Virus genome (UHGV): UHGV-0204578
Direction: 5' to 3' (one strand)
DNA: 31,092 nt
Origin: a virus
Shown: piece by piece, positions 12,777 to 27,032 of the stretch
Numbering within the stretch: position 1 is the stretch's first letter
Layout of the letters: every line of letters starts with the position of its first letter
The notes under the pieces: generated by a model
Told to the model about the DNA's origin: nothing
The model's database searches: none
Seen by the model: only the letters and a program-made list of their open reading frames with translations
Translations under genes and position numbers: made by a program

Positions 12777-13010
12777 TTAATGCAGCCAGCTGTCGTCTTC
12801 CCACACCTTCTGCATAATTTTCATCACTTGTTTTCTTTCTTCGTCCAGTTGCAGTCCGGTTAGTTCCACACCGTTAGAGCTACCTTTGCGAATGCGAATT
12901 ACCGTTTTGGGATACAGGGGGCGCAGATTGCGGTAAAGCTCGGATTCAAGGGCGTCCAGGGTAGACTGGCTAATCTTCTGCTCTTTATCGATCATTATTT
13001 CAATGCGCAT
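12777..13010 (-). CDS. dinI: DinI-like protein (77 aa)
   Basis: MRIEIMIDK...DALESEL...KVWEDDSWLH resembles E. coli DinI (MRIEVTIAK...ETWESADDWF). ATG at 13010 is preceded by GAGGTGA. The longer track ORF 12777..13082 is an upstream extension. Confidence 0.8.
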   Translation of the reverse strand: MRIEIMIDKEQKISQSTLDALESELYRNLRPLYPKTVIRIRKGSSNGVELTGLQLDEERKQVMKIMQKVWEDDSWLH

Positions 13011-13020
13011 AAAAGTCACC

Positions 13021-13209
13021 TCAGCTGATGACATCCATTGAGCGGTTGTATTCGTGGGTTCTGATTTTTGCCATGAGTTCATCAGTCAATTCAGAAACCC
13101 ACTGCAGAGCCAGCCCCTTCTCTTCATCACTACACTCACTAGCCGCTACAAGCTTAAGAAAAAAATCAATGCGCTGGAGCTTCAAAGACTCCAAAAAATA
13201 GTCCTGCAT
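13021..13209 (-). CDS. Small SOS-regulated protein (62 aa), possibly a 186 Tum-type antirepressor analogue
   Basis: ATG at 13209 with strong RBS (TAGGAGGAAAG-ATG), directly downstream of the LexA box and co-oriented with dinI. The 96-aa track ORF would contain the promoter and LexA box, so the 5' extension is rejected. The Tum analogy is positional only. Confidence 0.5.
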   Translation of the reverse strand: MQDYFLESLKLQRIDFFLKLVAASECSDEEKGLALQWVSELTDELMAKIRTHEYNRSMDVIS

Positions 13210-13252
13210 CTTTCCTCCTATGACACCACACGCAACACTGTATGTATAACCA

Positions 13253-13268
13253 CTGTTTATATTTACAG
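13253..13268 (-). promoter_or_regulatory. LexA operator (SOS box) CTGT-N8-ACAG, with a weaker adjacent half-matching copy at 13238..13253
   Basis: ctgtttatatttacag is a perfect CTG-N10-CAG LexA consensus, about 45 nt upstream of the small-ORF start and overlapping -10-like TATA-rich hexamers. Confidence 0.75.
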
Positions 13269-13283
13269 TATATAATAATCTTA

Positions 13284-13314
13284 CTGATGTAAAACGTTTT
13301 TTTACGTTCATCAG
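13284..13314 (-). terminator. Inverted repeat / possible terminator after gene A
   Basis: ctgatgtaaaacgtttttttacgttcatcag: 6-bp outer and AACGT/ACGTT inner pairing between A stop (13363) and the LexA promoter. Not a canonical terminator (no clean T-run). Confidence 0.3.
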
Positions 13315-13362: not shown

Positions 13363-15777
13363 TTAATACAGGTTCCGCCACTGATCATCTTCCTGCAAAC
13401 GCTGGTTCCGATAGAAGATACGCAGGCCTGCTCCTGACGGAATACTGCCTCCGCGAAGGAGTAAATCGACCTCTTTCTCGCTGCCATCAAATCCTCTGGA
13501 CTTCAGCTCATACACGAGCTGCAGTCGCTGATGGTCTGTAATTCGCTGTTTGTAGTCTTTACGCCGTTTCGGTTTCACCAGGCGTAACCTTGCTGCCAGT
13601 TCCCGGCGCTCTTTTTTGCTCATACTGTGCAGGTAATCGTGCAACTCCTTGTCATCCATGCTGGTAATGTCCGTTCTGGGGTCCCCATTAGCTGATTTAT
13701 CTTTCTCCTGTTGGTTCAAATTTTCAGCAAGGGGACAGTTATTGCCACGAGTCCAAGGGGCGCAAGCGCCCTGGTCGGCTGCCGCCTCCTGAACGTCAAC
13801 GGCTTTACGAACCATTTTCCACTTCACTGCATGAGTGCAGATCTTGCCCTCTGCAATGGGTGACCAGATGCCATAAATACGAATGCCGTGATCGCCATAG
13901 GCGGTCGGCTCTTCGTTGATTTCATAAGCGGTTCTGATGAGGTGATATTTACGGGGAACCAGTACGCCGCCCTGCTTCATGATGTAGGTGGCAAAACAAC
14001 CAGCATCAGCAGCAGCCAGGATGGCATCAAGGCGCGGGTTATCCAGTACCGGCGCACCTGCTTTTTTGTCCCCCTGTTGCCTTGCCGCCTGACCAGCCAG
14101 CAATCGCAGTTCACGGTAAGCCTGACGCCCCGGAATGCCAAAGAAGCGGAATTGCTGAACACGATGCAAAGACGCCCAGGCATTCACGTATTCAGCGTTA
14201 TCACGCAGAGATTTACCCGTTTCCTTGCTGATCTCGCCAGCCAGACCACGCCCGTCAATGTTCTTACTGATGTATTTCGCTATGTAGCTTGTCGGCGTTC
14301 CTTTGCGCGGGTTAATCAGCTCAGACTTAAAGCGCGGCCCCGTGTTATTGCCCAGCTCCTCGCGGTCTTCACGGATAGCAAACTTACGCAACAATGCAGT
14401 AATGGCGCGGCGGTCTTTTTTGCGCATGAAACACAACAGGTGCCAGTGAACTGTGCCGTCGTGATGCGGCTCAGCCACCCGCACGCCATACCAGCGCAAC
14501 CCGGCTTTGTGCATCGCCTTACGAAATGCAGCAAACATACCGACCAGATAATCGCTGCTTTGTCTTACCGTCGCATTTGTCCAGGTCGGGTTGGGCCTGC
14601 CGTTATTTAGCGTGGAATGGAAACGTGACGGACAGGTGATGGTGTAGAAAACGGCGCAGTCACCGCGCATTTCCGCGATAAGCTCCAGACCTTTAACACA
14701 GGCCATCATCTCATTGCGGCGATGCGCAGGGTTGCTGCTGCTGGCGTTTACCACATCCTCCATGTCCAGCGTGTCGCCGTCTTCGTTCACCAGTTCATGA
14801 GAACGGAAAAACTCCAGCGACTTACGGCGCTGCTCACGTTTATGCAACACGGCTTCATAGCTGACATAGGGAGATGCTTTTTTGCTGACAAGGCAGACAG
14901 CACGCAACTGCTCTTCCCGCCATTCGCAACGCATCTTCCATAATTTCCGGTACCACCAGTCGGCGCACAACATACGCGCCAGCGAACCCGGAATGAGTTC
15001 ATAGGGCACGGGTTTGCGGCGGTTTCTTTTCCGGCGGAGTTGCTCAAACGCAGGCGGGATAACATCCAGTCGCAGGGTTTCTGCTGCCACCTTTTCCCAT
15101 GTCTTGCGGATTTCTTCCGGCTTAACATCATCGGAGGCGTACAAATCACCACAAGCGGCATCAAGACACATGCTCATATGCGCAGCGACAAGGGTGGACA
15201 GGCGTTTCACCTGATCCTGACTCATTTCAGGCAGGATAAGCAGGCCGTCCAGCCCTTCATGGCTTGCCATAAAACGAAAAGATGCAGATAGCTGGCTGTC
15301 GCGTACATGCTCCAGTCGTTCCAGACATGGCTTAATCGTCTCACGTAAATAGCGGGAATAAGCCTTTGGCTTGCCCAGGCTGCTGAAGTATTCAATACGT
15401 TGCATCAGCGGCTTGCTGATATGGGAAGGCTGGGCGTTGACGTCCGCCAGAATGACCATATCCGGATTAAAACGCTGCTGCTCATGCGCCAGCTTTGCCC
15501 GACTAATGAGCTTATCCTGCTCCATTTCGCGCTGGACAGGATCACGGGATTCATTAAAGAAATAACGCTCCCAGACCTGATCACTCAGTGCCTCTCGGCG
15601 CAGCTGTTCCTGCTCGTTATCGGCAGCGTACAGAGTGATCAGGTTTGAAAGCGTAGAAACCGGCGCAACTTCCGCCGGGTCCAGATAAGGGTTAATGGCC
15701 TTTTTCGGGCTGTTCCATGAGAACGATGCGGCAGCCTCGTTAAAGCCGCAGCAGTTGTTCATATCGGCATGGCTCAT
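13363..15777 (-). CDS. A: Replication initiation protein A (rolling-circle HUH endonuclease, P2 gpA family)
   Basis: 804-aa ORF with HUH-like motif ([12 protein letters not shown]) and a paired-tyrosine motif (YIAKYISK) typical of P2 gpA/phiX174-type initiators. Confidence 0.85.
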
Positions 15778-16631
15778 GCACGTACTCCGTACACGGCAGA
15801 ACTATCCACGCCACGCGAATAATCAAATCCCACCCAGCAGCGCGGCCCGGAAACAGCAATGATTTCTGTTGCTGATTTACCCTCGCCAGCTGCCACACCG
15901 ATGCTGCGTTTTACCTTGATATAGTGGTGAGTAAAATTGCGATACAGCGAACGGATCAGGGATGTGTCACTGTTAGAAACAATGACCGGATGTCCTTCTG
16001 ATGACCGATGTTCAAGAACGGATGCCAGGTGATACTGGTCATCTTCAGTGAAGCCGTCAGCGTGATAGCCGGAAAACGTACCGTCATAAGGCGGATCGCA
16101 ATACACCACATCCCCCGCCTTCAACACCGCCAACGTTTCATCAAAGCTGGCGCAGATAAACGTTGCTCGCTGGGCCTTTTCTGCAAATGCGCGAATTTCT
16201 TTTTCAGGGAAATACGGATTTTTATAATTACCGTAGGGAATGTTGAAATGCCCGCTCTTGTTATAGCGACATAACCCACGGTAACCGTGACGATTGAGAT
16301 ACAGGAAATATACCGCTTTCATGAAATCAGTAATTTCAGTGGAGTAATTAAACTCCTGCCTTATGTTGTAATAAGCCACCTCCCTGTTTGCTTCCTCAAA
16401 TAAAACTCTGGCGCGAGATATAAACGATTCACAATCAGCGGCAACCTTTTTATAGAGGTTGATTAAATCAGGATTAATATCCGCAACCAGATAGCTGGGG
16501 TAATCCGTCTCCATCATCACAGCACAGGAACCCGCGAAAGGTTCAACCAGTCGCGGGCCAGCAGGAAGGTGTTTTTTCAGTTCGGACATAATGGCGGTTT
16601 TATTTCCCGCCCATTTCAGGATGGTGCTCAT
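15774..16631 (-). CDS. dam: DNA adenine methyltransferase (Dam family)
   Basis: Motifs ILKWAGNK (AdoMet binding) and DPPY (catalytic). ATG at 16631 is preceded by CAGGAGGTG; stop overlaps the A start (ATGA). The track ORF to 16703 is an upstream extension. Confidence 0.85.
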
Positions 16632-16930
16632 ACAGCACCTCCTGCAATAACATATCCTAAAGCTTCTAATGGGGTTAATGGGCGAATTGATAGCATCACC
16701 CATTGTTCTGAAACTGACATGACGTCATTAACCGGAAGCACATGAGAGATAACAGCGGCCCATTCCCTACCCGTAAATACGCCATGCTTCCATTCGCAAA
16801 GAGAAAGAACATCACCAACTTTATAGCCACGATCGTCTTTACGAAGTTCAGCCGTCTTTTGACCTGCAACCACAGCGTTGAAATACTTAGGTGCAATTTT
16901 TAATTGATGGATACGCACTGCCCTTGTCAT
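16628..16930 (-). CDS. Small ASCH/PUA-like (DUF3850-type) protein
   Basis: 100-aa product from ATG at 16930 (CGGAGGTGCTGT-ATG); family assignment from memory of P2-like early-region proteins, not verified. ATGA-coupled to dam. Confidence 0.55.
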
Positions 16931-18217: not shown

Positions 18218-18727
18218 TCACAGCAAACCGAATGAAGCACCGAGGCCAGTCACGGTATCAACTGCACTCGCCATCGCAGGATTAGCCTGTAAACGGGCCT
18301 GCAATGAAACAGCCGCCAGCGCCATCAGTCGTGTTACAGAGTTAATGCTGCTGATAGCATCACGACGACCTGCACTGGTTTTTACATCGCCAGATACCGC
18401 ACCTGCAGCAACACGCCCGATCTCTGCGGTTGCACTCATGACGTAATGTGGCAGTTTCTCTTTTGCCACCTCATTAATCGGTACGCATGGCAGGCAGTGA
18501 ATCTGAGCCAGAAAACCATCTACCAGCGTTGAATCTTCAGTCAGATCGGTGAGTAACCAGATTTCTGGCGCTGTGAGCTGATGCGGTTGATCTGGGTTGA
18601 GTTTGTTTCGCAGTGTCTGAACATTCATTCCTGCACGTTCTGCCAGCTTCGCCATATTGTGGCGTAGTGCAAAAGCTCTACAGGCTTCATCAAAATGCGG
18701 ATGTTTGGAAATCTTGTAATCAAACAT
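18218..18727 (-). CDS. cII: 186 CII-like lysogeny-establishment activator
   Basis: 169-aa ORF, second gene of the rightward early operon after apl; length and sequence recalled as matching 186 CII (memory only). Confidence 0.65.
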   Translation of the reverse strand: MFDYKISKHPHFDEACRAFALRHNMAKLAERAGMNVQTLRNKLNPDQPHQLTAPEIWLLTDLTEDSTLVDGFLAQIHCLPCVPINEVAKEKLPHYVMSATAEIGRVAAGAVSGDVKTSAGRRDAISSINSVTRLMALAAVSLQARLQANPAMASAVDTVTGLGASFGLL

Positions 18728-18759
18728 GCTGCCCCCTTAGAAAGTTCTCATAATTGAAC

Positions 18760-19008
18760 TTAGCCACCAACGATGACATTAAAATTGAAATTGGATTGGC
18801 CCATGTTTTTCCTGACTTGTTCCTTTTTGTACTCAAGGTAACGTATACATACTCTGTCTTTCGGTTTTTCCTTTTTTTCCAAGAATTTAGCGAGCTTACC
18901 ATTATGAATCATTTGATATACCGAACCGCGAGAGCGGCCTTCCCATTCCGCGAACTCTGCAGGTGTCGCCATCACTTTTGGTACACGAATTGAAATGTCG
19001 TTGCTCAT
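18760..19008 (-). CDS. apl: Apl/Cox-like excisionase and early-promoter repressor
   Basis: 82-aa HTH protein, first gene transcribed divergently from cI, as 186 apl and P2 cox. Confidence 0.7.
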   Translation of the reverse strand: MSNDISIRVPKVMATPAEFAEWEGRSRGSVYQMIHNGKLAKFLEKKEKPKDRVCIRYLEYKKEQVRKNMGQSNFNFNVIVGG

Positions 19009-19127
19009 AGTGCAGTATCTCTCGATTAAGGTTTGGTTTATGTCGTTTTATCTTGTTTTATTAGATTCAATATTTGATACATCGAGATACTACGATCCAA
19101 TATTTGATACGTCAATAGGATTAAGAA
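19009..19127. promoter_or_regulatory. Immunity switch region: lytic promoter pR (minus strand) with candidate CI operators; lysogenic promoter pL not located
   Basis: Minus-strand -35 TTGACG (19115..19110), 17-bp spacer, -10 TAGTAT (19092..19087). Two 13-bp direct repeats caatatttgatac at 19068..19080 and 19098..19110 overlap -35 and +1. Confidence 0.55.
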
Positions 19128-19760
19128 ATGATACAGGTAAAAGCTGGCGAGAATACAGGGGGAAGAGAGGCTATCCATAGACTAATGGCAGCCTATGATT
19201 TCAAGTCCAGACAGCAACTTTGCGATCACTTAGGCGCATCAAAAAGCACTATGGCAAACAGATACTTAAGAGATAGCTTTCCCGCAGAGTGGGTGATTCA
19301 GTGCGCCTTGGAAACAGGAGTTTCTTTACTGTGGCTAACCACCGGACAAGGCGAACCAGGTTCAAACATTGACCCTAAAAAAAATATCAATTCTGTGAAC
19401 TCCAGCAGGGTTAAACCTCTTTCTGAGCTTGTATCTCCTGAAATTGACAAGGCAACTCTCAACGGTGGTTTATTGGTCGATGCTGGAAAAGCAATCATTG
19501 ATAGCAGCATACTCCCCTCAGACTCAAGCAACCTGCTGCTGGTGAGTACTTCTGGTGATTCTTATTTAATAGATCGCAACCAAACACCACCAGTAAATGG
19601 TACGTGGTTAGTGGACATCGACGGGATAAAAAGCATTGTAAAATTGACACGACTCCCGGGAAACAGATTAGTAGTGCATCAGGATGATTCATCGTTTGAG
19701 TGCGAACTGGATGACATTGAGGTAATAGGTCGCGCACTGAAAATCATTAAGAGCCTTTGA
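19128..19760 (+). CDS. cI: CI-type immunity repressor (186 CI-like)
   Basis: 210-aa ORF with N-terminal HTH-like segment, divergent from apl and immediately upstream of int, the 186 cI-int arrangement. Confidence 0.7.
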   Translation: MIQVKAGENTGGREAIHRLMAAYDFKSRQQLCDHLGASKSTMANRYLRDSFPAEWVIQCALETGVSLLWLTTGQGEPGSNIDPKKNINSVNSSRVKPLSELVSPEIDKATLNGGLLVDAGKAIIDSSILPSDSSNLLLVSTSGDSYLIDRNQTPPVNGTWLVDIDGIKSIVKLTRLPGNRLVVHQDDSSFECELDDIEVIGRALKIIKSL

Positions 19761-20787: not shown

Positions 20788-20904
20788 TAAATGGCGGCAT
20801 TTTGGCGGCAGAACACTAAAAACAAGTAAAACAAGCAAATACAGACTAACACTAACATCATGATTTAAAATAAAAAAATATGATTTTGTTAGTATAAAAA
20901 TGGT

Positions 20905-20949
20905 ATGTAGGAATTTCGGACGCGGGTTCAACTCCCGCCAGCTCCACCA
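20905..20949 (+). other. ssrA: att core: 45-nt copy of the 3' end of the tmRNA gene ssrA (fragment only)
   Basis: ATGTAGGAATTTCGGACGCGGGTTCAACTCCCGCCAGCTCCACCA matches the E. coli ssrA 3' terminus from memory. Sequence upstream is integrase coding/AT-rich arm DNA, so the full gene is not here. Confidence 0.75.
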
Positions 20950-20982
20950 AATGATGATCCGGATACGTCCGGTGAAGTACAG

Positions 20983-21017
20983 AAAGCCCGCATGGCACAA
21001 GCCCTGCGGGCTTTTTT
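20983..21017 (+). terminator. Intrinsic terminator downstream of the ssrA 3' end
   Basis: GC hairpin gcccgca...tgcgggc followed by TTTTTT. Confidence 0.55.
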
Positions 21018-21133: not shown

Positions 21134-22327
21134 GTGGCACGGACAACACGCCCCCTTACCAACACCGAAGTTCTGCGCGCTAAGGCGTTAGAGAAGGATC
21201 TAACGCTGCACGATGGCGACGGGCTTTTCCTGATAGTGAAAACTAGTGGCAAAAAGCTCTGGCGCTTTCGCTATCAACGTCCGGTAACAAAGCAGCGGAC
21301 AATGATGGGGCTCGGTGCCTTCCCCGCCCTATCGCTTGCTGATGCCCGAGGATTAAGAGCGGATTACCTTGCCTTATTAGCCAACGGACTCGACCCGCAA
21401 ATTCAAACTGAAGTTGCAGAGGAACAGCAGCAAATAGCACTGGACAGTATTTTTTCAACGGTCGCCGCTAACTGGTTCCAGCTCAAAAGCAAAAGCGTTA
21501 CCCCTGATTACGCAAAAGACATTTGGCGCTCACTGGAGAAAGATGTATTCCCTGCCATCGGTGAGATCCCCGTTCAGCAAATCAAAGCACGGACACTGGT
21601 TGAAGCTCTTGAGCCAATCAAAGCTCGTGGGGCGCTTGAGACTGTACGTCGACTGGTGCAGCGCATTAACGAGATAATGATTTATGCCGTAAACACTGGC
21701 CTGATTGATGCTAATCCAGCATCAGGTGTTGGGATGGCCTTTGAGAAGCCCAAAAAACAAAACATGCCGACGCTTCGGCCAGAAGAGTTACCAAAACTCA
21801 TGCGTTCTTTGGTGATGTCAAATCTCTCTGTTTCGACTCGCTGTTTAATTGAATGGCAACTCCTGACGCTTGTGCGCCCTTCTGAGGCCTCCGGTGCTCG
21901 TTGGGCAGAAATCGATCTCGATGCAAAGCTTTGGACTATTCCAGCCGAACGGATGAAGGCGAAACGTGAGCACATAGTTCCTCTCTCAACTCAGGCATTA
22001 GAGATTCTCGAAGTGATGAAACCAATCAGCGCTCACCGTGAACATGTTTTTCCCAGTAGGAATGATCCAAAACAATCCATGAATAGCCAAACAGCTAATG
22101 CAGCTTTGAAGCGTATAGGATATGGAGGAAAATTAGTTGCACACGGTTTACGATCTATTGCAAGTACTACATTGAATGAAGCGGGCTTTAATTCAGATGT
22201 GATAGAAGCGGCATTAGCTCATACAGATAAAAATGAGGTAAGAAGAGCATATAACCGCTCTATCTATTTAAAGCAAAGAATAGGCATGATGGAATGGTGG
22301 GGTGAAAAAGTTTATAATAAAAACTGA
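21134..22327 (+). CDS. int: P4-family integrase (IntA-like tyrosine recombinase)
   Basis: 397-aa ORF, GTG start with AAGGAG 8 nt upstream; N-terminus MARTTRPLTNTEV...DGDGLFLIVKTSGKKLWRFRY typical of P4/CP4-57 integrases; sits about 185 bp after the ssrA 3' end as intA does in E. coli K-12. Confidence 0.9.
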   Translation: MARTTRPLTNTEVLRAKALEKDLTLHDGDGLFLIVKTSGKKLWRFRYQRPVTKQRTMMGLGAFPALSLADARGLRADYLALLANGLDPQIQTEVAEEQQQIALDSIFSTVAANWFQLKSKSVTPDYAKDIWRSLEKDVFPAIGEIPVQQIKARTLVEALEPIKARGALETVRRLVQRINEIMIYAVNTGLIDANPASGVGMAFEKPKKQNMPTLRPEELPKLMRSLVMSNLSVSTRCLIEWQLLTLVRPSEASGARWAEIDLDAKLWTIPAERMKAKREHIVPLSTQALEILEVMKPISAHREHVFPSRNDPKQSMNSQTANAALKRIGYGGKLVAHGLRSIASTTLNEAGFNSDVIEAALAHTDKNEVRRAYNRSIYLKQRIGMMEWWGEKVYNKN

Positions 22328-22964: not shown

Positions 22965-23893
22965 TACTTTCTCAGAAGCCTCTTAAATTCATCTGCTAAT
23001 GATTTTGCCCTTAATAACAATAGCTCAGAAACCGATGTTACGTCAGAATCATATGGTTCGACCCTTTGAAGTGGTACGTCACTTGAGGCATGAACCTCTA
23101 CTAATCCCGCCTCATTAATCCTGCGTATACTAACTTCACCATTTCTCGAAGCAATAAGAGCATCCTGTTTTAACTCACCATCAGGTTTAATTTCCTGACC
23201 TCGCTCAGATTTATATGTTTTATCCTCTTCAATAACCCCAATACGCTTGAAGCGCTTTTGCATAACATTTTCTGCAGAAGCGAGATCATCCGGATTAGGA
23301 CGTCGAGTGACCATATTTATACACGTAATACCTTTTAAAGAAAGCATACGTTCTACACTATCTGGCTCAGTCAATATTGTAACATTAACCTTTCCAAATT
23401 TCTCTATAATTCTCTCGTGAGAAAATATCCCATTCAGAAAGCTTTCTATTTGTCTTGGTGTAAGATGCCGGCTCTTGTCCTGCATTTCGTAAACTAAAAG
23501 ATGACTTGCGGGTAGAAAAACAAAAGAGAATCTAGCTACATTTGGTTTTAAATTATCAGGTATATTTATTCTTTCCTTTTCCTCATCTGAAGCTATATCT
23601 TTCTTTACGATATCGAACCAGTCGCCATTAACGTCAATATCTGTATACTTTAGAATTTCCCCCTCAAAAGGTTCACTAATTACCTGACCTTTCTTATAAG
23701 GATAAAAATATGATAAAGTTGCGAATGAGTCTCCTCTTAAATTAACATTGCTCGCATTTTTTCTTGCCATCCTGAATAACTCGACATACTTTTCTGGCGA
23801 GTGGGGGTGCATGGATATATTCACAGCCCCGTAAGTTAATTTTTTTGCCCTTGCCATTTTTATCTTTGTTCCCTTATTTCGTGAAAGAATCAT
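22964..23893 (-). CDS. Uncharacterised soluble protein (309 aa; 297 aa if start is ATG at 23857); upstream gene of cargo cassette
   Basis: Intact AT-rich ORF with no TM segments and no catalytic motif I recognise (no Walker A, no GS..DxD nucleotidyltransferase motif, no HxH); translationally coupled to the membrane protein gene. Confidence 0.7.
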   Translation of the reverse strand: MILSRNKGTKIKMARAKKLTYGAVNISMHPHSPEKYVELFRMARKNASNVNLRGDSFATLSYFYPYKKGQVISEPFEGEILKYTDIDVNGDWFDIVKKDIASDEEKERINIPDNLKPNVARFSFVFLPASHLLVYEMQDKSRHLTPRQIESFLNGIFSHERIIEKFGKVNVTILTEPDSVERMLSLKGITCINMVTRRPNPDDLASAENVMQKRFKRIGVIEEDKTYKSERGQEIKPDGELKQDALIASRNGEVSIRRINEAGLVEVHASSDVPLQRVEPYDSDVTSVSELLLLRAKSLADEFKRLLRK

Positions 23894-25093: not shown

Positions 25094-25827
25094 GACAGTA
25101 ACCCTCGTGCTTTCAGATCGGCTTCACGTTCCTGCATTTTTTCCTGCCAGACTTTTCGCTGACCGGGCGTGGCCGCAACGTCATGCTCCATATGTGGCAG
25201 CGTGGAGGCCGCCAGCCCTGTTTTAAAAAGCACTGGTTCATCAGTCAGACGGATATTGCAGTCCTTCACCGCCTGCTCAAGCCATGATTTCACCTTATGC
25301 ATAACGGCATGCTCTGGTTCGACATAGCCCTGATGCCCGATGGTGTTGGCAAGCGGATTTTCTTTAACCAATATGCTGAGTTTCATTGCTCTAACGAGTG
25401 CGCCGCAGGTTTCACGTAGGGCGGCATCGAGTTCATGCTCTGCATACTGGCTGAGTACGCCGTGATGCGCCTGACGGTATGTTCTGGCCGTGCTGTCACA
25501 GGCTCCCCGAAGGCTGTCCAGCTCGAAAGACAGCACCTCAGCCATGTTGTCACATTCCAGTGCCAGCTCCCGCCGTGCCACGCGCGCAATATGGCGTTGT
25601 TTCAGCTCGTCGGTAATGACAGCACCACCGGCACGAAAGGCGGTGCGCCATGCACCGGAATCATTGCCGTTTTCCTGCTCCAGTTCAGTTTTTTGCGTTT
25701 TCACCTGGCTGATGGCCGTCGTGGTTTCGTCCATGCGTCGGGCATTGGTCAGATGTGCTTCTCTGGCCGTCTCAAGACTTTCTATTGCGGGTTTAAGGTA
25801 GTCGGGAATAACAGCGGTCTGAGTCAT
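25090..25827 (-). CDS. sid: Sid (capsid size determination external scaffold)
   Basis: 245 aa from ATG at 25827 (GAGGAGA RBS); position and length as P4 sid, upstream of delta and psu; helical, Gln/Glu-rich. The track ORF start at 25893 is an upstream extension. Confidence 0.75.
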   Translation of the reverse strand: MTQTAVIPDYLKPAIESLETAREAHLTNARRMDETTTAISQVKTQKTELEQENGNDSGAWRTAFRAGGAVITDELKQRHIARVARRELALECDNMAEVLSFELDSLRGACDSTARTYRQAHHGVLSQYAEHELDAALRETCGALVRAMKLSILVKENPLANTIGHQGYVEPEHAVMHKVKSWLEQAVKDCNIRLTDEPVLFKTGLAASTLPHMEHDVAATPGQRKVWQEKMQEREADLKARGLLS

Positions 25828-26634: not shown

Positions 26635-26761
26635 TGATGATCGCTCAGCAAACAGCCCCTTTTTCTGGCTTGCTTCTTTTCGCCATTTCCAGGTATAGTT
26701 TTCCCGCTGTCGCAAAATCGACAGCCGGGCGTGGAAACCCGAGCAACTCGAAGGCGACACC

Positions 26762-26785
26762 AGACGCGCCATGCGTCTTTTTTTG
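26762..26785 (+). terminator. Intrinsic terminator inside an untranslated leader
   Basis: agacgc-gccat-gcgtct hairpin followed by TTTTTTT, in the roughly 400-bp gap between alpA and the next RBS-bearing start. Confidence 0.55.
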
Positions 26786-27032
26786 TGTCGCAACTAACGC
26801 CACAGAGCGCCAGATAATGGCGTGGTGTGCGGATCGTCGTGCAGACGTCACTTTGTGTCTCCTGTCCGCAATCGCATATCATGCTGTCATGTCAATGGTA
26901 GCTCAGGCGGGGCAGCCCTCGGGCTGGCCGGTATTCTTCGAGGCCGGTATTTCCACCCCCGTCTGGGCTATCGCCACTGAGCGTGGAAACTCCGGCGATA
27001 GCAATAATTTGCTACTCGAAGGAGGTTGCCTT

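Follow-up and report, generated by a model that had tools for sequence, protein, structure and literature searches.

How the choice between lysis and lysogeny is made in the virus genome UHGV-0204578, and which protein reads the two short direct repeats lying beside its repressor gene, are the questions raised by this locus. The window analysed here is the whole stretch of 31,092 nucleotides (nt), to which all coordinates refer; the L-numbered loci mentioned below are related genome loci fetched for comparison. The interval in question, 19009–19127, is the entire gap of 119 base pairs (bp) that separates a minus-strand open reading frame (ORF) of 82 amino acids (aa) from a plus-strand ORF of 210 aa. 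We consider it, with a probability of roughly 80%, to be the lysis-lysogeny switch of a temperate phage of the 186 type, in which the CI repressor would bind the two repeats as operators and which should work like the switch of coliphage 186. The basis for this reading is gene identity, the position of the elements, their conservation and their covariation, from which all binding events and transcription starts are inferred.

The gap is bordered by the following genes.

18760–19008, minus strand: apl-like gene of a Cox-like excisionase and repressor, 82 aa, opening the lytic operon (by homology).

19128–19760, plus strand: cI, gene of a 186-type repressor, 210 aa (by Pfam and PDB matches).

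The product of cI contains both domains of the 186 CI protein (Pfam PF07022, Phage_CI_repr, 4.8e-31; PF16452, Phage_CI_C, 4.3e-28) and matches the solved structure of 186 CI (2fjr) with an E value of 1.3e-25 over residues 14–206, covering both domains; no peptidase S24 domain was found in it by Pfam. The Apl-like protein is 29% identical to 186 Apl (E 3e-10) and matches PHROG 575, "Cox-like excisionase and repressor" (3e-24). Beyond apl, on the minus strand, lies cII, whose product matches Pfam PF06892 and shares 71% identity with 186 CII, and beyond cI follow int, Int arm-type-like repeats and the 3' end of ssrA (attR). A previous reading of the window made from its sequence only (the sequence-only reading) had proposed an immunity switch here, with start codons that correspond to 19128 for cI and 19008 for apl. 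Both starts are confirmed, and the homology and layout of CI, Apl and CII mark the locus as the switch that governs immunity in a 186-like prophage. Over the 1.6 kb surrounding the gap, the window shows 96.6% identity to the Klebsiella phages of the Kp4845-2 series and 80–83% identity to the Salmonella phages SEN8 and SopEPhi and the Yersinia phage MLG42, with both operators present. Among the 447 CI relatives in IMG/VR, the 80 that were fetched share 90–100% identity with the CI of the window. We see in the gap the probable switch of a prophage that resembles 186, belongs to the Felsduovirus/SopEPhi immunity type, sits at ssrA and is very common. No RNA family from Rfam matched the switch region.

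The lytic promoter was predicted on the minus strand, next to cI.

19110–19115, minus strand: predicted pR −35 hexamer, TTGACG (consensus scan, conservation).

19087–19092, minus strand: predicted pR −10 hexamer, TAGTAT, with a predicted start at about 19080 (consensus scan, conservation).

The near-consensus minus-strand promoter described in the sequence-only reading is thus found, with TTGACG (19115–19110) and TAGTAT (19092–19087) separated by 17 bp, although "near-consensus" is generous for 9 of 12 consensus positions, which is also the score of 186 pR (TTTACT-17-TATATT). Its location by the cI start corresponds to that of 186 pR: the −35 hexamer is 12 nt away from the cI ATG in the window versus 14 nt in 186, whose annotated record places the cI start at 23011, the pR −35 at 23026–23031 and the −10 at 23049–23054. 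Across 63 distinct relatives sharing this immunity type, the −10 hexamer is invariant and the −35 hexamer nearly so. In distant loci whose CI and Apl are of other types, the −35 position is almost always occupied by TTGACG or TTGACA (TTTACG in L018), and loci with other operator types have TAATAT, TATATT or TAGTAT in the −10 register.

The two repeats are located in the spacer and in the start region of this promoter.

19094–19110, no strand assigned: spacer operator GATCCAATATTTGATAC, copy 2 of the repeat, candidate CI site centred at about 19102, between the −10 and −35 hexamers of pR.

19064–19080, no strand assigned: downstream operator GATTCAATATTTGATAC, copy 1 of the repeat, candidate CI site centred at about 19072, at approximately +1 to +17 of pR.

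The 13-bp motif CAATATTTGATAC occurs exactly twice in the window, at 19068–19080 and 19098–19110, i.e., 30 bp apart and overlapping the −35 hexamer and the start region, just as had been noticed from the letters alone. An exact direct repeat of this length was reached by 1 of 5000 shuffles of the 119-bp gap. With the adjoining bases it extends to GATyCAATATTTGATACrTC (20 nt, 90% identity, the same 30-bp spacing). Copy 2 takes up the spacer of pR, its end coinciding with the final base of the −35 hexamer, and both 17-bp copies are quasi-palindromic about AATATT, as operators of the 186 type would be expected to be. The central CI operator of 186 likewise sits in the pR spacer according to the annotated record. 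The gap could be aligned without gaps in 84 loci of the same CI type, so the spacing of 30 bp between the operators is fixed. In 82 of these 84 loci the spacer copy reads GATCCAAT[A/T]TTTGATAC, only its centre being variable; the downstream copy exists in nine variants, in which the centre and the right flank change and GATTCAA...TTGA is kept. The bases directly outside the copies (19060–19063 and 19081–19084) vary freely across the same loci. Apart from a site inside cI, discussed below, no operator copies were found elsewhere in the window, and inspection by eye at ±21 or ±30 bp from the two copies revealed no conserved dyad recognisable as a third operator.

The pentamer GATAC, which had also been put forward as a binding site, does occur three times in the gap, on the plus strand at 19076, 19086 and 19106, with a fourth copy at 19130 in cI and an inverted one at 19015. 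We rejected it as an independent motif: two of the three copies are merely parts of the repeats, the remaining one belongs to the pR −10 region, and in relatives the downstream operator shows GAACA, GGACA or GATAT. A different short word, GATC, forms the left edge of the spacer operator (19094–19097), directly upstream of the pR −10 hexamer; it is kept in 18 of 18 genome loci, representing all operator types, and is lost in SopEPhi. Among the genes of the prophage is one for an adenine methylase of the D12 class (Dam-type; 15777–16634).

To decide between CI and Apl as the protein binding the repeats, which the sequence-only reading had left as "and/or", the switch regions of 18 species-level genome loci and of phage records were typed, 25 loci in total. 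They fall into three operator types.

Type I (this window, SopEPhi, SEN8): downstream operator GATTCAATATTTGATAC, spacer operator GATCCAATATTTGATAC.

Type II (Fels-2, L008–L013): downstream operator GGTTT(T)G-N5-CAAACC, spacer operator GATCACwTTTTmTATAC.

Type III (L014): downstream operator ATTCCC-N5-GGGAAT, spacer operator GATCACTTTAAGTGGTC.

In the 25 loci, each operator type goes without exception with one of three versions of CI residues 1–37. No such dependence exists on the type of the CI C-terminal domain or on that of Apl: operator types I and II are found beside one Apl type, and I, II and III beside the other. As the operator type tracks the CI N-terminus and not Apl, CI is favoured as the binder. 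The repeats are best read as probable CI operators, and the Apl half of the former proposal is not upheld.

It could still be argued that the 13–17 bp repeats are sites to which Apl, a Cox-like protein, binds head-to-tail as monomers in order to repress pR. The copies are direct and equally oriented, direct repeats are what proteins of the Cox/Apl family recognise (PMC7498355), and the left end of copy 1 (GATTCA) continues a series of hexamers with a 10-bp period, described below. However, the copies are 30 bp and not about 10 bp apart, and 186 Apl requires three or more sites next to each other (PMC7498355); repeat regions of types I and II have an Apl type in common, and type I is found with both Apl types; each copy has internal dyad symmetry; and the attR arm, on which Apl has to act, lacks the motif. 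We therefore regard Apl binding to the repeats as quite improbable. The sites of Apl should rather be sought in the hexamer series itself and in its counterpart at the attachment site.

19024–19069, plus strand: five 6-bp blocks with a period of 9–11 bp, candidate Apl operators between pL and pR (GATTAA at 19024, GGTTTA at 19035, GTTTTA at 19045, GTTTTA at 19055, GATTCA at 19064).

20809–20842, minus strand: attR-arm hexamers GTATTT, GTTTTA, GTTTTT and GTTCTG, 9–10 bp apart, candidate Apl excision sites.

20791–20799 and 20803–20811: Int arm-type-like repeats ATGGCGGCA and TTGGCGGCA, respectively, in the attR junction (20788–21010).

About 20896–20949: att core with the last ~50 nt of ssrA, followed by the ssrA terminator (attR junction).

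In the comparison of 63 sequences the variable positions 19041, 19054 and 19061–19063 fall between the hexamer blocks, and the array is retained in loci with different CI operators. The sequence CTTGTTTTA occurs exactly twice in the window, once in the array and once on the minus strand at 20827–20835, between int and the ssrA core. Sequences resembling GTTTTAC-N3-GTTTTTA are located beside Int arm-type repeats in the att arms of MLG42, SEN8, Fels-2 and L012, and partly in L007. In 186, Apl binds seven 6-bp direct repeats spaced by 10–11 bp between pR and pL and five at attP (PMC7498355). By our own reading of the 186 sequence these repeats approximate GTTTGC, in the same orientation as the GTTTTA hexamers here. 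The more likely Apl sites are thus the GTTTTA-type hexamers 10 bp apart at 19024–19069 and in the attR arm. No complete transfer-messenger RNA (tmRNA) gene was found in the window by ARAGORN, as expected for a displaced ssrA fragment at attR.

About 185 bp past this fragment, a second integrase gene, of the P4 type, is located (21134–22327; Arm-DNA-bind_3, Phage_int_M and Phage_integrase domains), and therefore two integrative elements appear to be placed in tandem at ssrA. Inside the second island, the interval 26693–26978 is matched in Rfam by C4 antisense RNA (76 bits), isrK (74 bits) and an a1/b1 target element, which corresponds to an antisense immunity module of the P1/P7 style.

The promoter of the lysogenic transcript could not be located in the sequence-only reading. 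A candidate can be placed in the register of 186.

18990–18995, plus strand: candidate pL −35 hexamer, TTGAAA, within apl codons 5–7 (186 register, conservation).

19013–19018, plus strand: candidate pL −10 hexamer, CAGTAT, with a predicted start at about 19025 (186 register, conservation).

In the annotated record of 186, the pL −10 occupies 23131–23136 and the −35 occupies 23154–23159, inside apl, whose ATG is at 23141; in the orientation of the window this promoter reads TTGCGA-17-CATGAT. Both in 186 and in the window the −35 hexamer ends 10 nt before the complement of the apl ATG and the −10 hexamer begins 4 nt after it. TTGAAA followed after 17 bp by CAGTAT, CAATAT or CAACAT is present in 22 of 22 related loci compared, including six with a quite different Apl. 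We suppose that pL is probably TTGAAA-17-CAGTAT, overlooked before because it is weak by consensus (8/12). In 186, too, pL is the weaker of the two promoters, and pR suppresses it (PMC3675496). The −35 hexamer of the candidate encodes Ile-Ser-Ile of Apl. A divergent Apl family beginning with MRPNISITL (L015–L020) preserves hexamer and tripeptide alike, which suggests that apl codons 5–7 (18990–18998) are under a dual constraint.

With this assignment pR and pL would face each other. The −10 hexamers are separated by 68 bp in the window versus 76 bp in 186, and the predicted starts by about 54 bp versus 62 bp for 186, if each start is assumed to be 7 nt past its −10 hexamer. The sequence-only reading had proposed such a geometry with both 186 and P2 as models and had recommended a comparison with the 186 pR/pL operators. 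That comparison shows nearly the same register for pR, the exact register for pL and, as in 186, a candidate operator in the pR spacer; with both 186 CI domains present and operator units that are quasi-palindromic, the model is 186 and not P2. A back-to-back arrangement of the lambda type, in which cI would be transcribed from a plus-strand promoter TTGATA-17-AATGAT (19104–19132), is highly improbable. The consensus scan does report this promoter with 9/12, and it is the only plus-strand candidate by pR. However, its −10 hexamer overlaps the cI ATG, so that transcripts, beginning roughly 10 nt into cI, could not yield CI, for which reason we rejected it as the cI promoter. Its TTGATA is the right half of the spacer operator, the register of the convergent pL mapped in 186 is conserved here, and the CI of the window lacks the S24 domain.

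More distant elements of the switch were also predicted, as follows.

19359–19375, no strand assigned: candidate FL-like distal operator GGTTCAAACATTGACCC, inside cI, 265 bp from the spacer operator (strict motif match).

18743–18760, no strand assigned: palindrome AGTTC-N8-GAACT over CATAAT (18749–18754), the probable pE −10 region, at the position of 186 FR.

18701–18727: CII-type inverted repeat ATGTTTG-N13-CAAACAT, overlapping the cII start, upstream of CATAAT.

The motif GNTYCAANNNTTGA, built from both repeats, matches the window only at 19064, 19094 and 19359, with 0.095 matches expected per strand. The last site is found at the fixed offset of +239, with 0–1 mismatch, in 8 diverse type I loci, and is also present in SEN8. 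In the type II loci L008, L009 and L011 it is the type II motif that recurs inside cI, at +269 and with 1–2 mismatches. In 186 the distal operator FL sits 277 bp into cI (PMC3675496). We treat 19359–19375 as a candidate only for an FL-like distal operator.

This site also bears on the supposition that the repeat has no protein-specific function, being a neutral duplication of local origin or just AT-rich promoter sequence, with CI binding elsewhere, for example at the GATC left edge or at the 18743–18760 palindrome. Binding to sequences shared by all types would fit the identity of the CI recognition helix across operator types, considered below, and the covariation with the CI N-terminus could be linkage. 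Yet GAT(T/C)CAA...TTGA is kept in both copies over the 84 loci with flanking bases free to vary, and the motif recurs 265 bp away in cI, past the region coding for the CI N-terminal domain, switching its type together with the operators in type II loci; this recurrence is an argument for CI sites that goes beyond the linkage caveat. We find the neutral alternative improbable and retain the repeats as putative CI operators.

As for the other side of the switch, the annotated 186 record shows FR overlapping pE at the homologous place, as well as the CII site there. CATAAT together with the CII-type repeat is likely to be the promoter pE, reading back through apl toward cI. The palindrome 18743–18760 is conserved in the 13 closest genome loci (L003–L014) whatever the operator type, and so covariation cannot assign it to CI. 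A repeat finder had paired 18743–18757 with 19387–19401 (13 of 15 positions complementary) as an FL/FR couple. We rejected this couple, about 0.3 such pairs being expected in 750 bp by our own estimate and the 18743 element being conserved regardless of the CI type, and retained the latter only as a palindrome at the pE/FR position. In SEN8 (L105), the region 25470–25535 upstream of an unannotated ORF for an Ogr/B-like zinc-finger protein contains TCAATATTGA, an operator-like palindrome with a spacer one base shorter, which may be a counterpart of the CI sites at 186 pB. The strict motif has no match upstream of this ORF, and the gene of the late activator (ogr/B) is itself outside the window.

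The elements probably involved in induction form a compact module.

13253–13268: perfect LexA box CTGTTTATATTTACAG, in the SOS module 12777–13311.

After the LexA box, on the minus strand, come an ORF of 62 aa (PHROG 698, function not known) and an ORF of the DinI family. Identity between the DinI-like ORF and the C-terminal half of 186 Tum amounts to 41%, and the pair of ORFs resembles the split tum reported for Fels-2 and PSP3 (PMC3121763). As CI has no S24 domain, we infer that induction is likely to proceed through an antirepressor.

Several points weigh against reading the locus as a 186-like switch with two CI operators. The predicted recognition helix SKSTMANRYLR (CI residues 38–48, encoded at 19238–19273) is identical beside operator types I and II, so the helix does not explain operator specificity; beside type III it differs by one residue, and the N-terminal differences between CIs adjoining different operator types (compared with L008–L014 and L023) lie in residues 1–37. 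Between types I and II, the spacer operators agree at 12 of 17 positions. The operators adjoin the 5' end of cI, and their covariation with the CI N-terminus could partly reflect linkage within a mosaic block. There are two operators 30 bp apart here, compared with three at two helical turns in 186 (PMC3675496). Promoter matches of 9/12 occur at chance frequency (2 found versus 1.9 expected in 900 bp), and therefore the motif alone is no evidence for pR, for which position and conservation count instead. The candidate pL owes its score to 5 matches at −35 and 3 at −10, i.e., only half of the −10 hexamer agrees with the consensus. At the FR position there is no type I motif, and the palindrome located there is independent of the CI type. 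The 62-aa ORF shows no similarity to the N-terminal, antirepressor half of 186 Tum. Finally, transcript or binding data for this phage type, including transcription starts of SopEPhi, were not found in the literature reachable.

One tentative way to accommodate the first of these points, which we hold to be rather unlikely, is that in the long-linker CIs of the SopEPhi/Fels-2 type specificity is set outside the recognition helix and that, in addition, the operator spacing of 30–32 bp (three turns, versus two in 186) entails an assembly unlike the 14-mer wheel of 186 with its 21-bp register. The candidate determinants of specificity would then be the N-terminal arm, helix 1 or the turn, and the assembly might have another oligomer size or DNA-binding domains on longer tethers spanning non-adjacent positions.

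If the 186-like reading is correct, the switch could operate in the following way. pR would drive apl, cII and the early lytic genes, and the weaker pL would drive cI and int; as the two would fire convergently across about 54 bp, pL should suffer interference from an active pR. In a lysogen, CI on both 17-bp operators would shut pR off and thereby relieve the interference on pL, so that cI and int would stay expressed, and the third operator-like site 265 bp away in cI may assist by looping, as FL does in 186. After infection, CII acting at ATGTTTG-N13-CAAACAT and CATAAT (pE) would give cI and int transcripts. Upon induction, the LexA-controlled antirepressor module at 12.8–13.3 kb is predicted to inactivate CI, and Apl, expressed from pR, would occupy the GTTTTA hexamers of the inter-promoter region and of the attR arm, which would damp pL and direct excision.

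By itself this locus matters little. Its value is a sequence-level map, all elements of which are predicted, of pR, pL, two CI operators, a possible distal operator, Apl sites and pE, for a prophage type that is very common in Klebsiella, Salmonella, Citrobacter, Enterobacter and Yersinia and that includes the toxin-carrying SopEPhi. Such a map would aid the prediction of superinfection immunity groups among these prophages, and the 30-bp operator spacing with the shared recognition helix makes them a natural comparison for the wheel model of 186 CI.

Among the known systems, the closest relatives of the switch are those of SopEPhi, SEN8, MLG42, Kp4845-2 and related Felsduovirus-like phages, which have the same switch sequence and immunity type and only point differences, mainly in the operator centres and in the right flank of the downstream operator. 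No published mapping of operators or promoters for this type was found in the literature reachable. Fels-2 of Salmonella LT2 shares with the window the architecture, the Apl type, pL, the positions of the pR hexamers, the GTTTTA hexamers, the ssrA att arm and the CI recognition helix, but differs in its downstream operator (GGTTTTG-N5-CAAACC), its spacer operator (GATCACTTTTTATATGC), the 37 N-terminal residues of CI and the CI C-terminal domain. Fels-2 is presumably heteroimmune.

The P2 Pe–Pc switch resembles that of the window in that its promoters face each other over 40–60 bp and its first lytic gene codes for a Cox-like protein (PMC7498355, PMC3448106), and the operators of its C repressor are direct repeats (PMC1904268). 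However, CI is about twice as large as the P2 C repressor, and the two cannot be aligned (PMC3448106), P2 has no cII, and the repeats of the window are dyad-symmetric units and not simple half-sites. A C/Cox switch of the P2 type is thus not matched by the present locus, which has a repressor of 210 aa with the 186 CI domains and contains cII; nor is the divergent switch of lambda.

The system that accounts best for the locus is coliphage 186 (Eganvirus), from which the window nevertheless deviates in details. The operator sequences are unrelated to those of 186, and there are two near-identical operators 30 bp apart, in contrast to three dissimilar ones about 20 bp apart, within 57 bp, in 186 (PMC3675496). 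The predicted hexamers number five versus seven in 186. CI has a linker that exceeds that of 186 CI by 16 residues in the alignment, and is itself 18 residues longer, the longer linker of the SopEPhi and Fels-2 CIs having been noted already (PMC3448106). No FR site matching the operator type is present, the putative antirepressor is unrelated to the N-terminal half of Tum, and attB is ssrA in place of the tRNA-Ile gene. What the two phages have in common, the promoters and operators of the window being predicted ones, is the gene order int-cI / apl-cII, both CI domains, pR by the cI start, the pL −35 hexamer inside apl, a CI operator in the pR spacer and an operator-like site about 250–300 bp into cI. 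They also share T-rich 6-bp direct repeats between the promoters and at att (approximately GTTTGC in 186, GTTTTA here), an inverted repeat for CII where cII starts, with pE directed back through apl, and a LexA-controlled module with a DinI-like part.

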